Positions 124 through 2,994 of a DNA stretch of 42,958 nucleotides are shown piece after piece. The notes beneath the pieces are model-generated. The model was not told the DNA's origin. It saw only the letters and a program-made list of their open reading frames with translations, and searched no databases. Source of the DNA: an uncultured Methylomarinum sp. (GTDB taxonomy: Bacteria > Pseudomonadota > Gammaproteobacteria > Methylococcales > Methylomonadaceae); the NCBI GenBank assembly GCA_964392135.1, contig CAYMPX010000001.1, positions 1 to 42,958 of the forward strand, read 5' to 3'. Within the stretch, counting starts at the first letter, position 1. Every line of letters starts with the position of its first letter. The translations under genes and the position numbers were made by a program.

Positions 124-1359
124 CTAACTGCCAAACTTGTCAAATAGTATATTTTCTGAATCCACGCCAAGATCGGATAGCATAGTCTGTACAGCGGAAA
201 GCATCATTGGGGGGCCGCATAGATAGAATTCACAATCTTCCGGTGCTGCGTGATGTTTTAGATATTTATCGTATAGAATCTGGTGGATAAATCCCGTTTC
301 ACCCTGCCAGTTATCTTCTGGCAATGGTTCAGATAAACCTATAGTCCAATCAAAATTATCAAACTCTTGAGCCAGTGAATCAAAATCCTCAATATAAAAC
401 ACTTCACCGAGACTTCTTGCACCATACCAAAAAGATATTTTACGTTGACTATGCAAACGTCTCAATTGATCGAAAATATGTGAGCGCATGGGTGCCATCC
501 CCGAGCCACCACCAATAAAAATCATTTCATTTTTTGTTTCACGAGCAAAAAACTCACCATAAGGCCCATAAATGTCAACCTTATCTCCTGGTTTTAGGTT
601 ATAAATAAAAGAGGATACAATACCAGAGGGTACTTCCGATTGTTGGGGGGGAGGCGATGCAATGCGTACATTGAGCATAATAATCTCTTTTTCATCGGGA
701 TAATTGGCCATAGAATAGGCGCGTGTTACAGCTGCATCCGATTTTGACCGATATTGCCACAGATTAAATTGATCCCAGGTTGACCGGTATTTATCATCAA
801 TATTAAAATCATTATAGGATACTGAATAAGGCGGGGCTTCCAGCAAAATATATCCTCCCGCGCGAAAATTAATCTGTTTATCAACGGGCATTTGCAAAAT
901 TAATTCCTTGATAAAAGTTGCCACGCATCGATTAGAGCGAACGGTACACTCCCATTTATTGATGGTCATTAACGATGCAGGTAGTTCTATCGCCATATCC
1001 TCTTTAACTGCCACCTGACAGCCAAGGCGATAATGGGAACGTATCTGGTTATGGCTGAGCTTTGCTTTCTCGGTAGCCAAAACACTCCCGCCACCTTGAG
1101 TAACAATAAGGCAACACTGTCCACAGGTACCGCAACCGCCACATGCAGACGGCAAATAAATACCTTGTTCGGCCAGTACGTGCATTAATTTATTCCCTAC
1201 AGGCACTTGCAGCGTATGCTCAGAATCATTATTTATCAGAATACGAACCTGACCGCTAGTCACCAGTCTTGAGCGGATAATCAGAATAAGTGATACTAAT
1301 ACCAATACTAAACCGGTAAATGCAACCATACCTAAAATAACCACTTCCTGTTCATTCAT
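124..1359 (-). CDS. nqrF: NqrF-like NADH:quinone oxidoreductase subunit F (N-terminal TM helix, 2Fe-2S ferredoxin, FAD and NADH domains)
   Basis: 411 aa, the same length as NqrF and similar to it end to end. It has an N-terminal hydrophobic helix, the 2Fe-2S motif SACGGCGTCGQC, the FAD motif RAYSMANYP and the NAD motif GGGSGMAPMRSH. Its start overlaps the upstream gene by 8 nt. Confidence 0.9.
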   Translation of the reverse strand: MNEQEVVILGMVAFTGLVLVLVSLILIIRSRLVTSGQVRILINNDSEHTLQVPVGNKLMHVLAEQGIYLPSACGGCGTCGQCCLIVTQGGGSVLATEKAKLSHNQIRSHYRLGCQVAVKEDMAIELPASLMTINKWECTVRSNRCVATFIKELILQMPVDKQINFRAGGYILLEAPPYSVSYNDFNIDDKYRSTWDQFNLWQYRSKSDAAVTRAYSMANYPDEKEIIMLNVRIASPPPQQSEVPSGIVSSFIYNLKPGDKVDIYGPYGEFFARETKNEMIFIGGGSGMAPMRSHIFDQLRRLHSQRKISFWYGARSLGEVFYIEDFDSLAQEFDNFDWTIGLSEPLPEDNWQGETGFIHQILYDKYLKHHAAPEDCEFYLCGPPMMLSAVQTMLSDLGVDSENILFDKFGS

Positions 1360-2905
1360 TACCTTGTCTCCTCAACGCGTATAGAAAAGGACCATAACCA
1401 TCACTACCCAGCCAATAATGCACCAGATTATTAACACCCCGGCTGGTCAGTGTGGCACCAGAAAGTCCATCCACTTGATATATCGCTGCAGATGAATTTG
1501 GCAACACCTCTCCTTTGATGACGCTAATGGCAACATCATCATTCGCGTCAAAAGCCTGTTTTCCCTGCCAAAGTTTTTGCCAGCGAGGATTGGTGATTTC
1601 ACCCCCCAGACCGGGAGTTTCTCCCTGTTGATAGAAGGTTATGCCCGCAATGGTTTTAGCGTCACTCTCCAAAGCAAGAAAACCATATAGGGTTGACCAT
1701 AAGCCTTTACCATATATTGGCAGGATAATTTTTTGTAGCTTATTACTCTTTTTGACCAAGTAAATGGGCATGTATTTTGGGCGCCGTTTGATATTAGCAA
1801 TATCAAGTTCTGCCGGAATTTTTTCGCCGTACTCAGGGTCTTTAGCCAAGGCATGGATAGTCAACTTATCTAAATGGGTTATACTATCGTTCAGGTATTT
1901 TCCAGACTTCAATATAATCCATTGTGTTTCAATATTTTGCTGGTAAATCGTGTCGATATTGACATTTTCTGTGTACAGATCAGCAACCAGTAAAATATTT
2001 TTGATTTTTTCCAAGCGCTGATTTTCTTTTTGACGGGGACTTAATTTCACCGCAGCGATTGATACCAAAAAAGAAGCAACCAGACAAACACCTAGAACCA
2101 CTTGATAGGTTTTTAAAATACTGTTGTTGCTATTATTAATTGTTGGTTTGATTTCTCTATTGGAGTGGTCGATGGTGTCCGGTCGTAAAAACCATATTTG
2201 ATATAAAGAAATTAGAATCTGTAAGCTTAATGAAAGGCCTAATAAGCCACCTGCAATGACGACTGTATATGCATACATGGGATCCCATTTGGTTAAAAAC
2301 CAGGAGAGTATATCGACAAAGATGGCTAAAAAAGGCGTGACTATCAATGGATATTTAATCCAGCCAGGTAATGCTGAGTGTATAAAAATATAACCAAGAA
2401 CAAATAATACCAATCCGATACCAAACAAATGAATATGAGAAAGCTTGACTAAAGTATGTATGGATTCACCGGTATCAACCTTGGCTACTTCCTGTATCCC
2501 GGAGTAAGAGGATAAATCGGGAATATTCAGACCTGATGCTGGCGTATGGCATTGCAAGCAGGTTTTTGTGAGAATGGGATAAATAAGTGATGAATAATCT
2601 TTTTCAGGGATGCCCTTTTTAAGCCATTCGACAATAATATGGCGGTCTTCTATCTGTATATAAGCAGCCATTGGCCCACGAATTGCCGCCTCCAGTCTGG
2701 AACCACTACGATTACCATAGTATGTATCGGCAACGTCTTCAATGGATATCCCGGGTTTACCATCATGTCCCTGATGTGAAGTATAAAGATAATACATTGC
2801 CATAAGATAAGCCGAACCTATTAACAGTAAATAACAGGTAAATAAAAGCTTTTCGCTGAGACTGCAATCAATGAAACTCCTGTTTTTCTTTTTTGTATAT
2901 TGCAT
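1352..2905 (-). CDS. Fusion protein: uncharacterised multi-TM domain with one c-type heme motif joined to an NqrC-like FMN-binding subunit
   Basis: The ORF runs to a TTG at 2923, but the ATG at 2905 (MQYTKKKNRS) is the more likely start. The N-terminal half has about 4 hydrophobic helices, CLQCH (2546-2560) and SHIHLFG. The C-terminal half begins with a fifth TM and matches NqrC: YGKGLWS, GETPGLGGEI, and the flavinylation motif DGLSGATLTS at about 1441-1472. Confidence 0.85.
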   Translation of the reverse strand: MQYTKKKNRSFIDCSLSEKLLFTCYLLLIGSAYLMAMYYLYTSHQGHDGKPGISIEDVADTYYGNRSGSRLEAAIRGPMAAYIQIEDRHIIVEWLKKGIPEKDYSSLIYPILTKTCLQCHTPASGLNIPDLSSYSGIQEVAKVDTGESIHTLVKLSHIHLFGIGLVLFVLGYIFIHSALPGWIKYPLIVTPFLAIFVDILSWFLTKWDPMYAYTVVIAGGLLGLSLSLQILISLYQIWFLRPDTIDHSNREIKPTINNSNNSILKTYQVVLGVCLVASFLVSIAAVKLSPRQKENQRLEKIKNILLVADLYTENVNIDTIYQQNIETQWIILKSGKYLNDSITHLDKLTIHALAKDPEYGEKIPAELDIANIKRRPKYMPIYLVKKSNKLQKIILPIYGKGLWSTLYGFLALESDAKTIAGITFYQQGETPGLGGEITNPRWQKLWQGKQAFDANDDVAISVIKGEVLPNSSAAIYQVDGLSGATLTSRGVNNLVHYWLGSDGYGPFLYALRRQGNE

Positions 2906-2994
2906 TATGAATACCGACTCCAAGAGGGGCTAAGTTTCAGATGACATCGGCTAAATGGATGTCATCTGTTTCATATAAAATGGAAATCCTGGGA

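Follow-up and report, generated by a model that had tools for sequence, protein, structure and literature searches.

Contig CAYMPX010000001.1 of an uncultured Methylomarinum sp. (assembly GCA_964392135.1) was analysed over its full length, positions 1 to 42,958, and this whole stretch of 42,958 nucleotides is referred to here as the window. Near its first position, on the minus strand, the window carries a gene for a predicted inner-membrane protein in which a domain of the Pfam family PF27139 (Aq_1264_TM), with four membrane helices and a haem-c attachment motif, is fused to NqrC, the flavin subunit of Na+-NQR, an NADH:quinone oxidoreductase that pumps sodium ions. Its homologues mark the fusion as a genuine conserved gene that is restricted to a few Methylococcales lineages. 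Together with the NqrF encoded directly downstream, the fusion protein is best read, with a probability of roughly 0.45, as an NADH-fed periplasmic relay from FMN to haem c that serves metal redox, probably that of copper.

Architecture and distribution of the fusion

The list of open reading frames (ORFs) of the window gives an ORF of 523 amino acids (aa) at 1352..2923 on the minus strand, counted from a TTG. Homologues start at the position of the ATG at 2905 (MQYTKKKNRS), which is probably the true start of the gene and gives a product of 517 aa. Residues are numbered here with the Met at this ATG as 1. The parts of the fusion gene and the adjoining nqrF gene are the following:

1352..2905, minus strand: fusion gene, 517 aa, comprising the PF27139 (Aq_1264_TM) domain, a linker and a complete NqrC by profiles and homologue alignment
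2858..2905, minus strand: basic cytoplasmic N-terminal tail, residues 1-16, MQYTKKKNRSFIDCSL, with four K/R and no D/E (charge count)
2777..2857, minus strand: transmembrane helix (TM) 1, approximately residues 17-43, running in to out (hydropathy and AlphaFold2, AF2)
2462..2776, minus strand: periplasmic helical loop, residues 44-148, a predicted divergent mono-haem cytochrome c domain (family alignment, profiles)
codon 2669-2671, minus strand: M79, near-invariant, candidate sixth haem ligand (family alignment)
2546..2560, minus strand: CLQCH haem-c attachment motif with C116, C119 and H120 (family alignment)
2381..2461, minus strand: TM2, residues 149-175 (AF2, alignment)
2429-2440, minus strand: S156-H157-I-H159 of SHIHLFG (residues 156-162), periplasmic end of TM2 (alignment)
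2291..2365, minus strand: TM3, residues 181-205 (alignment)
codon 2312-2314, minus strand: D198, near-invariant, which lies with W202 in D-I-x-S-W-(W/F)-L-T-K at the periplasmic end of TM3 (alignment)
2189..2281, minus strand: TM4, residues 209-239, running out to in (hydropathy and AF2)
2120..2188, minus strand: polar cytoplasmic linker, residues 240-262, about 23 aa (alignment of fused homologues)
2045..2119, minus strand: TM5, the NqrC membrane anchor, residues 263-287 (hydropathy, NqrC alignment)
1355..2044, minus strand: periplasmic NqrC FMN-binding domain, residues 288-517 (profiles, Foldseek)
codon 1451-1453, minus strand: T485 in DGLSGAT, the ApbE target Thr by homology to NqrC (NqrC alignment)
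124..1359, minus strand: nqrF paralogue, 411 aa, with a TM helix, a 2Fe-2S ferredoxin domain with four Cys, and FAD and NADH domains (profiles)

Hydropathy gives five hydrophobic segments, at approximately 17-43, 149-175, 181-205, 209-239 and 263-287, and the helices of the AF2 model at 16-43, 149-174, 181-207, 209-239 and 261-307 match them. The N-terminus is positively charged, haem attachment requires the export of a CxxCH, and very short loops join TM2 to TM3 (HSALPG) and TM3 to TM4 (KWDP); the topology predicted from these features places the N-terminus inside and the haem loop outside. The four helices are followed by a linker inside, the NqrC anchor runs from in to out, and the FMN domain is periplasmic. 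The four-helix bundle would bring the chain back to the cytoplasm, and therefore the NqrC anchor would retain its normal N-in orientation. CLQCH is the sole CxxCH of the protein, whose Cys residues are found at 14, 24, 116, 119 and 274 only. A preliminary description of this DNA had listed the ORF, the basic N-terminus, five hydrophobic helices, a single CxxCH at 2546-2560, the SHIHLFG motif and the polar linker, all of which are present in the translation, the hydropathy profile and the AF2 model. Its positive-inside argument, which puts the haem c and the FMN sites both in the periplasm, is sound by hydropathy, charge count and AF2. The loop holding the CxxCH does lie between TM1 and TM2, with a length of about 105 aa instead of the 115 aa it had been given.

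The C-terminal half, approximately residues 258-514, matches NCBIfam NF003749 with 313.7 bits (cut-off 255) and TIGR01938 with 256 bits (cut-off 144), both end to end, and it is also matched by Pfam FMN_bind (PF04205.20). The alignment with Vibrio cholerae NqrC (PDB 7XK3/8A1T chain C) covers residues 3-254 of 257 and includes the membrane anchor; the two proteins are colinear over the whole length, share the N-in anchor and the FMN_bind fold, and are identical in VDGLSGATLTS. Foldseek aligns the model of the NqrC module with 7xk3_C at E = 2.6e-22 and 43% identity, and domains from crystal structures are matched with target TM-scores of up to 0.88. Across nine fused proteins the flavinylation motif D-G-x-S-G-A-T with its target Thr is invariant, and from this motif FMN is predicted to be bound on T485. 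A full-length profile match, a single N-in anchor followed by a periplasmic FMN_bind fold, and the flavinylation motif thus identify the C-terminal half as a complete NqrC, including the Thr of SGATLTS, and the fusion of a haem-c domain of four TM helices with NqrC that had been described beforehand is borne out by the NCBIfam cut-offs and the PF27139 match. The fusion differs from V. cholerae NqrC in the haem-c membrane domain of 250 aa in front, and in having nqrF as its sole nqr partner gene, outside an nqrABCDEF operon.

The start of nqrF overlaps the stop of the fusion gene by 8 nt, and nqrF is found directly downstream of the fusion in every fusion locus of sufficient extent. That NqrF is encoded next door is confirmed by a score of 621 bits against TIGR01941 (cut-off 295). 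Against V. cholerae NqrF, the protein scores 539 bits over residues 3-407 of 408, with the TM helix and all four 2Fe-2S Cys aligned; the helix itself is about 50% identical to its counterpart. The NqrF paralogue is therefore full-length: it has the TM helix, the Cys ligands of the 2Fe-2S centre and the domains for FAD and NADH. Compared with the canonical Methylomonas subunits, the fused NqrC shows 49% identity and the accompanying NqrF 57%, values that identify the two as old paralogues rather than displaced housekeeping genes.

Eight further cluster representatives are full-length fusions of 503-535 aa, with 71-86% identity and 98-100% coverage, and two additional fused representatives are interrupted by contig ends. 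The fusion is present in six organism-named genome records, namely five metagenome-assembled genomes (MAGs) of Methylococcales (a Methylomonas sp., a Methylococcaceae and three Methylomarinum) and one unclassified Gammaproteobacteria MAG, and four more fused loci were found in metagenomes (4 of 80 loci). Most PF27139 proteins are stand-alone proteins of about 245 aa, as would be expected if a frameshift or a chimeric contig had joined such a gene to nqrC. This explanation has next to no probability: the eight other full-length representatives were sampled and assembled separately (NCBI, JGI, ENA, Logan), the four metagenome loci add to them, and the linkers of the fused proteins vary through insertions that keep the frame and measure between 0 and about 20 residues, while both halves are well conserved. 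Independent full-length fusions together with in-frame linker variation rule out the frameshift that the preliminary description had named as a possible objection. The architecture is hidden in public annotation, where one fused member of 515 aa is labelled plainly as 'NqrC' in GenBank.

The PF27139 domain, its family and its neighbours

The window protein (P0121) carries precomputed Pfam matches to PF27139.1 and PF04205.20. With residues 1-255 as query, a sequence search matched 720 proteins; among the 120 matches listed, nearly all are stand-alone proteins of 231-269 aa with 61-85% identity, all carry PF27139.1, and a few bear the wrong label 'elongation factor-1 alpha'. When the representatives at 50% identity are searched exhaustively with HMMER, the family size comes to 772 clusters at E <= 1e-3. 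The profile search with the N-terminal domain that had been suggested for defining the family returned PF27139 only and matched no family unrelated to redox chemistry, and in the Pfam and NCBIfam searches the domain had no above-threshold match to any characterised family. Our literature search found no paper on the family, and no solved structure or known function for any member.

Conservation was counted in an alignment of 65 diverse PF27139 members that are 24-80% identical to the query. C116, C119 and H120 are conserved in 65/65, and at this level of divergence such invariance argues that the CxxCH is not a chance motif. W94 is kept in 64 of the 65 and H159 in 63, D198 in 61 with Asn in the remainder, M79 and H157 in 60 each, and W202 in 57; G64 and G219 are conserved in at least 90%. 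The 'conserved-looking' His residues of the preliminary description are accordingly of two kinds, since H157 and H159 are conserved, whereas H44, H47, H150 and H176 vary across the family. H157 and H159, with a single residue between them, lie where TM2 meets the periplasm and at the same height as D198, and the alignment places the resulting cluster of His-x-His, Asp and Trp at those ends of TM2 and TM3 that are in the outer leaflet. In the cytoplasmic half of the membrane, none of the His, Cys or Met residues is conserved.

By its Pfam match, its layout of TM1, haem loop and three further TM helices, and the conserved CxxCH, M79, HxH and D198, the N-terminal domain belongs to PF27139. Its CxxCH lies in a segment that is exported according to the predicted topology and is conserved across homologues, as is characteristic of c-type cytochromes. 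From this pattern of conserved residues, we conclude that PF27139 is likely to be a family of membrane-anchored mono-haem c-type cytochromes with a predicted haem and Met as candidate sixth ligand. Matches of family members to known cytochrome profiles are sub-threshold (Haem_bd in 17/65, Cytochrome_CBB3 in 14/65, PccH in 12/65), and a sequence-profile search of the PDB gave weak matches confined to the haem-motif region of small cytochromes, among them PccH (4RLR). The isolated domain is modelled with a pLDDT of 95.1 and a pTM of 0.86, and Foldseek found no match to this model in the PDB, b cytochromes included (best E = 1.4). D-I-x-S-W-W-L-T-K was also considered as a WWD haem-handling motif of the CcmC/CcsA type and dropped, as the motif order differs and there is no profile match. 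The fusion gives a first functional handle on a widespread family with an invariant haem-c motif, a confident predicted fold and no solved relative: it links PF27139 physically to a known flavin carrier and an NADH dehydrogenase module, which makes a redox role directly testable.

PF27139 also occurs in other fusions. In many proteins (P0130-P0160), for example of Rhodanobacter, Sulfuriferula and Acidiferrobacterales, it follows an N-terminal SPW-repeat membrane domain (PF03779), and in one case (P0135, L018:2189-3178) it is fused to a YHS metal-binding domain.

The genomic contexts of the family were studied in detail for five stand-alone genes and in bulk for 80 metagenome loci, 4 of which hold fused genes. 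The fusion shares with the stand-alone proteins the CxxCH, M79, W94, H157, H159, D198, W202 and G219. Stand-alone genes differ in lacking NqrC and NqrF, and often they are paired with a secreted His/Met-rich protein of about 160 aa, which adjoins them in at least 11 loci and is found neither in the window nor in any fusion locus:

L001:8768-9253, L002:7429-7902, L018:3151-3636 and L019:6757-7245: gene of the 160-aa partner
L025, L026, L029, L031, L033, L053 and L054: further loci with the 160-aa partner

The partner carries the motifs GHxxEHxE..MHGG.P..H.DH, TYGNYF.MP and THRHF, has no match in Pfam, NCBIfam or the PDB, and is probably a metal-binding partner of the PF27139 family; a remnant of it is left in L015-L017. 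Metal-related genes near PF27139 genes encode YHS and HMA proteins, RND pumps similar to Cus, P1B ATPases and regulators of the MerR type, a mer operon also occurs, and class-I cytochromes c stand at +1/+2 in 16/80 loci. In L031, a stand-alone PF27139 gene and its 160-aa partner are divergent from two genes that resemble neighbours of the fusion in the window: one for an outer-membrane protein like the 432-aa protein OMP432 (30% identity), and one for a dihaem protein of 207 aa (L031:2036-2659, minus strand) that corresponds to the 94-aa and 126-aa cytochromes in fused form. This arrangement ties the trio of cytochromes and outer-membrane protein to PF27139 independently of NqrC. In a distant subfamily, five loci have fused cytochrome-porins of the Cyc2 type directly upstream of the PF27139 gene:

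L066:432-1772, L085:818-2221, L092:232-1680, L094:2184-3548 and L095:484-1920: Cyc2-type cytochrome-porins

All five carry the Cyc2 motif A-x-P-S-F-[AS]-R-Q-T ... CxxCH ... P-N-L, for which the definition of PMC8406198 was used. In this Cyc2-linked subfamily, positions +1/+2 are commonly taken by class-I cytochromes c, and a HemN-like gene stands at +3. The neighbours suggest that PF27139 proteins act where periplasmic cytochrome chains begin or end at the inner membrane, often in loci for metal handling.

Two alternative readings start from this family-wide evidence. In the first, the domain is a quinone-linked membrane cytochrome c, in which H157, H159 and D198 would form a quinol/quinone site on the periplasmic side, similar in function to NapC/NirT/CymA. 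The conserved His/Asp/Trp cluster does lie in the outer leaflet right beneath the haem domain, soluble cytochromes c and outer-membrane cytochrome-porins beside the stand-alone genes are what is expected at the inner-membrane end of a chain, and no transmembrane electron carrier would be required. Against this, neither the PDB profile search nor Foldseek finds homology or fold similarity to known quinol dehydrogenases, and the YHS, HMA, mer and Cus neighbours together with the His/Met-rich partner favour a metal site over a quinone site. The FMN of NqrC would become an extra periplasmic relay and NqrF would act separately, for example in reducing quinone or a cytoplasmic substrate, which leaves the strict coupling of a full membrane-anchored NqrF to the fusion unexplained. 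We consider the quinone site improbable, and the roles it would assign to the FMN and to NqrF equally so.

In the second, Cu or Fe would be held by H157, H159 and D198 and undergo oxidation or reduction by the haem c, making the domain a redox-coupled metal site or permease by analogy with oxidase-dependent Fe uptake and reductive Cu uptake by Fre/Ctr. The pattern of two His and one carboxylate is kept in 60-63 of 65 sequences, and the secreted partner and the YHS domains in fusions and neighbours are in line with it. In the stand-alone systems the 160-aa protein would be the chaperone, in the fusion NqrC and NqrF would supply the reductant, and the purpose may be copper acquisition for pMMO, the hosts being methanotrophs with a high copper demand. 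However, no similarity to any known metal transporter was found, the gene block of the fusion adjoins efflux genes rather than uptake genes, the 160-aa partner is missing from the window and from all fusion loci, and the fusion is limited to few Methylococcales lineages. A metal site of this kind appears unlikely, if a little less so than the quinone site, and the same holds for the proposed division of roles and its purpose.

The conserved gene block and the proposed path of the electrons

The fusion and nqrF are the last genes of a conserved block on the minus strand, which in the window contains the following further features:

78..103, minus strand: hairpin resembling an intrinsic terminator just past nqrF, an 11-bp stem followed by a T run (sequence)
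2995..3279, minus strand: mono-haem cytochrome c of 94 aa (CTNCH) whose signal is of the lipoprotein type (LLINAC), conserved as the gene next upstream of the fusion (ORF, profiles, synteny)
3289..4587, minus strand: OMP432, a secreted protein of 432 aa with a coiled-coil N-terminal part and ...TSGF at its C-terminus (ORF, synteny)
4668..5048, minus strand: class-I cytochrome c of 126 aa with the lipobox FLTAC, first gene of the five-gene block (ORF, profiles, synteny)
5602..11654, minus strand: heavy-metal RND efflux set upstream on the same strand, cusC 10359-11654, cusB 8765-10366 and cusA 5602-8772 (profiles, synteny)

The conserved order is cusCBA, lipoprotein cytochrome c, outer-membrane protein, lipoprotein cytochrome c, fusion, nqrF. 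It recurs in L010/L011, in L012 without the 126-aa cytochrome, in L013/L014 and in L022-L024; the record of L050 begins at the gene of the 94-aa cytochrome. In the window this gene begins 9 bp downstream of that of OMP432. OMP432 has no Pfam or PDB match, and its C-terminal part is probably an outer-membrane beta-barrel. The hairpin at 78-103 probably marks the end of the operon, and an operator search upstream of the block gave no convincing inverted repeat.

For the NADH-fed relay, we propose the following path. In the cytoplasm, NADH would reduce the FAD and then the 2Fe-2S centre of NqrF, and after a membrane step the electrons would reach the FMN of the NqrC module. One inner-membrane protein would tether the two periplasm-facing cofactors, the FMN of NqrC and the haem c of PF27139, with the four-helix bundle as a second membrane anchor. 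The FMN would pass electrons to the tethered haem c, a direction that should be downhill for typical potentials, and from there they would move via both lipoprotein cytochromes c to an acceptor, probably a metal, in the periplasm or the outer membrane. The metal context in the window comprises the CusB-like adaptor with a tail rich in Met and His, two pumps of the HME-RND type, a P1B ATPase, a regulator of the MerR family and an HMA protein. Our working guess is the reduction of Cu(II) to Cu(I), the form exported by Cus-type pumps, because the block keeps a conserved position beside a Cus-type pump whose CusB-like adaptor has Met/His-rich repeats. The acceptor may also be iron or another one, or the system may serve copper acquisition instead of efflux.

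Several observations weigh against the relay. Synteny is the whole basis of the copper link, and generating Cu(I) in the periplasm carries a hazard of its own. The second half of the metal island looks to be of the Zn/Cd type, as the window's ATPase scores best against ZntA-type models and its MerR regulator against ZntR. The locus holds no candidate transmembrane redox carrier, and no apbE was found among the scanned ORFs of the window. As the stand-alone members work without NqrC and NqrF, the bundle's own chemistry at H157, H159 and D198 would not be explained by the relay scheme. With identities of 49% and 57% the paralogues appear to be old, and their fit to a housekeeping NQR core is assumed.

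With the canonical proteins of Methylomonas albis as queries, tblastn found no NqrA, NqrB, NqrD, NqrE or NqrM in the window, in 15 other fusion-locus records or in L020, but only C and F, so that the locus does not encode NqrC and NqrF together with NqrA, B, D and E as a Na+-NQR would be. The statement in the preliminary description that NqrD/E are absent thus holds for the locus, while related Methylomonas carry an intact nqrABCDEF-nqrM elsewhere. Such an intact operon is found in M. albis and in one other assembly with the same NqrC type of 287 aa, and a third NqrC relative sits in nqrBCDEF-apbE-nqrM; all canonical nqr operons found by same-genome look-up are in assemblies other than the fusion-bearing ones. 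An unfused orphan pair of NqrC (296 aa) and NqrF (428 aa), both with N-terminal extensions, adjoins putA at L020:8001-10183. This NqrC is among the nearest relatives of the fused one (54% identical), and its locus has neither NqrA/B/D/E nor a PF27139 gene. NqrC and NqrF can therefore exist outside the six-gene nqr operon, fused here and unfused in L020, which raises the question how electrons cross the membrane in NqrC/NqrF pairs without NqrD/E in cis.

One possible answer is that the housekeeping Na+-NQR lends its core of NqrD/E (and NqrB) as a docking site for the NqrC and NqrF paralogues, which would give the NQR a side exit through haem c. Orphan subunit isoforms are known to join other respiratory complexes, such as the cbb3 oxidase isoforms of Pseudomonas. 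The idea builds on this analogy, on the membrane anchor kept by NqrF, on the need for an intramembrane centre, and on the bundle-less pair of L020; it also follows from the lack of NqrD/E or a substitute in cis together with the intact nqrABCDEF-nqrM in Methylomonas and relatives. Among the readings of the membrane step we favour this one, tentatively and at less than even odds.

Alternatively, the fusion and NqrF could be a self-sufficient mini-complex in which the bundle, alone or as a dimer with the NqrC/NqrF anchors, holds a b haem or an Fe-S centre and crosses the membrane. NqrD/E are missing from all fusion loci searched, the fusion and nqrF are translationally coupled, and H157, H159 and D198 form a conserved polar site within the bundle. 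C24 of TM1 is specific to the fusion (8/9) and lies at a depth similar to that of C274 in the NqrC anchor. On the other hand, all conserved membrane residues are in the outer leaflet, and two His residues two positions apart on one helix cannot make two bis-His haems. In transmembrane b cytochromes of the FdnI/NarI/cyt b561/MsrQ type, the His ligands have to come from separate helices and lie close to either face of the membrane; the bundle shows neither conserved His pairs on separate helices nor fold similarity to a solved member. A di-haem b wire was rejected on conservation, with H157 and H159 as the only conserved candidates, both on TM2 at its periplasmic end. Homology of the bundle to NqrD/NqrE (Rnf-Nqr, PF02508) was likewise rejected, as hhalign gave probabilities of 0.4% and 0.2%. 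The earlier suggestion that the bundle replaces NqrD/E by means of a b-type haem thus finds no support in conservation, hhalign or Foldseek. An Fe-S site built from C14, C24 and C274 is a weak candidate, since C24 is Ser in one fusion (P0128) and C14 is not conserved across the family; most stand-alone proteins have Ala in place of C24, and Y25 and Y38 are the other fusion-specific changes of note in the bundle. Finally, the bundle is 63-85% identical to the listed stand-alone proteins without NqrC/NqrF, which argues against remodelling for a new task; with its conserved residues it recurs in hundreds of stand-alone proteins whose genes have neither nqrC nor nqrF close by, and the orphan pair of L020 has no bundle. 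We give a mini-complex of this kind a small chance.

The boldest form of this alternative would be a self-contained NADH-driven electron exporter of a previously unknown kind, in which the bundle provides both the crossing and a reaction centre of haem c and metal (HxH-D), and in which the lipoprotein cytochromes and the outer-membrane protein complete a trans-envelope conduit that reduces extracytoplasmic Cu(II)/Fe(III) in aerobic methanotrophs. We give it an equally small chance. If true, the PF27139 family with its roughly 770 clusters would by extension supply the inner-membrane terminus that several periplasmic cytochrome chains lack so far, the Cyc2-linked ones included.

Relation to known systems and further genes of the window

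NosR serves a periplasmic copper enzyme, and the fusion differs from NosR and NirI in having no cytoplasmic Fe-S domains (five Cys in total, no Fer4 match). With NosR/NirI, Listeria PplA and other ApbE-flavinylated extracytosolic systems it has in common a membrane-anchored extracytosolic FMN_bind domain of the type that carries electrons outward (PMC8238504), and these are the systems to which it comes closest in function. From these systems it is set apart by the lack of an NqrB/RnfD-, MsrQ-, PepSY- or DsbD-like membrane partner. Flavinylated and cytochrome modules are interchangeable or combined in such systems, for example in RnfG with multi-haem domains (Meheust et al. 2021, PMC8238504). 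As this survey defines 'NQR' by the presence of NqrF, the fusion cluster would be counted there as NQR, and the combination of PF27139, NqrC and NqrF is not described in it.

Similar to NapC/NirT/CymA and to Geobacter PccH, the PF27139 domain would hold a haem c at the periplasmic membrane surface near soluble cytochromes c. It differs from NapC/NirT/CymA in having one haem instead of four and four TM helices instead of one, and with all profile matches below threshold no homology is established. Porin-cytochrome conduits (Cyc2, MtrAB/MtoAB) likewise pair an outer-membrane protein with cytochrome c, as the window operon does with OMP432 and a small mono-haem cytochrome c. However, OMP432 lacks a haem motif, comparison with the Cyc2-like proteins of the five loci detected no similarity, and its putative barrel is deduced from sequence features. 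Our literature search (aq_1264, SPW repeat, NqrC/NqrF fusion or paralogue, methanotroph copper) returned no description of the fusion protein, nor is it found in the paper on NQR evolution. The PF27139 haem-c bundle joined to NqrC, with an orphan NqrF and a trio of cytochromes and outer-membrane protein, is thus an architecture undescribed in the literature searched. For methanotrophs it points to an NADH-fed periplasmic redox chain inside a metal-efflux island, which would be relevant to how these organisms handle copper and to the extracellular metal reduction reported for them.

Upstream of the block, the CusB-like adaptor (8765-10366, minus strand) carries at its N-terminus a unit of about 36 aa repeated in tandem, ERKILFYR.(P/S)MNPSVTSP.PAKD.MGMDYV, and its C-terminal tail is rich in His and Met. 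Beyond the cus genes lies a second heavy-metal island. On its plus strand it encodes an OEP (12940-14322), an adaptor (14328-15569), an RND protein of the CusA/CzcA family (15579-18668), a PepSY-like protein (18711-19205), a P-II-like protein (19207-19548) and a ZntA-like P1B ATPase (19601-21904). The minus strand adds a gene for a ZntR-like MerR regulator (21908-22354) and, farther on, one for an HMA/CopZ-like protein (24283-24606). Between the RND sets are two divergent small ORFs of 127 aa (11912-12295, minus strand) and 144 aa (12355-12789, plus strand), which match no family, save for a weak DUF2946-like match of the 144-aa ORF.

Farther along, the window encodes a B12-binding radical SAM protein (30797-32698, minus strand) and a gene group with His_biosynth, ATP-grasp_3 and Hydantoinase_A matches (33728-36569). 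We take this group to be C1 genes linked to tetrahydromethanopterin (H4MPT), which would fit a methanotroph host.

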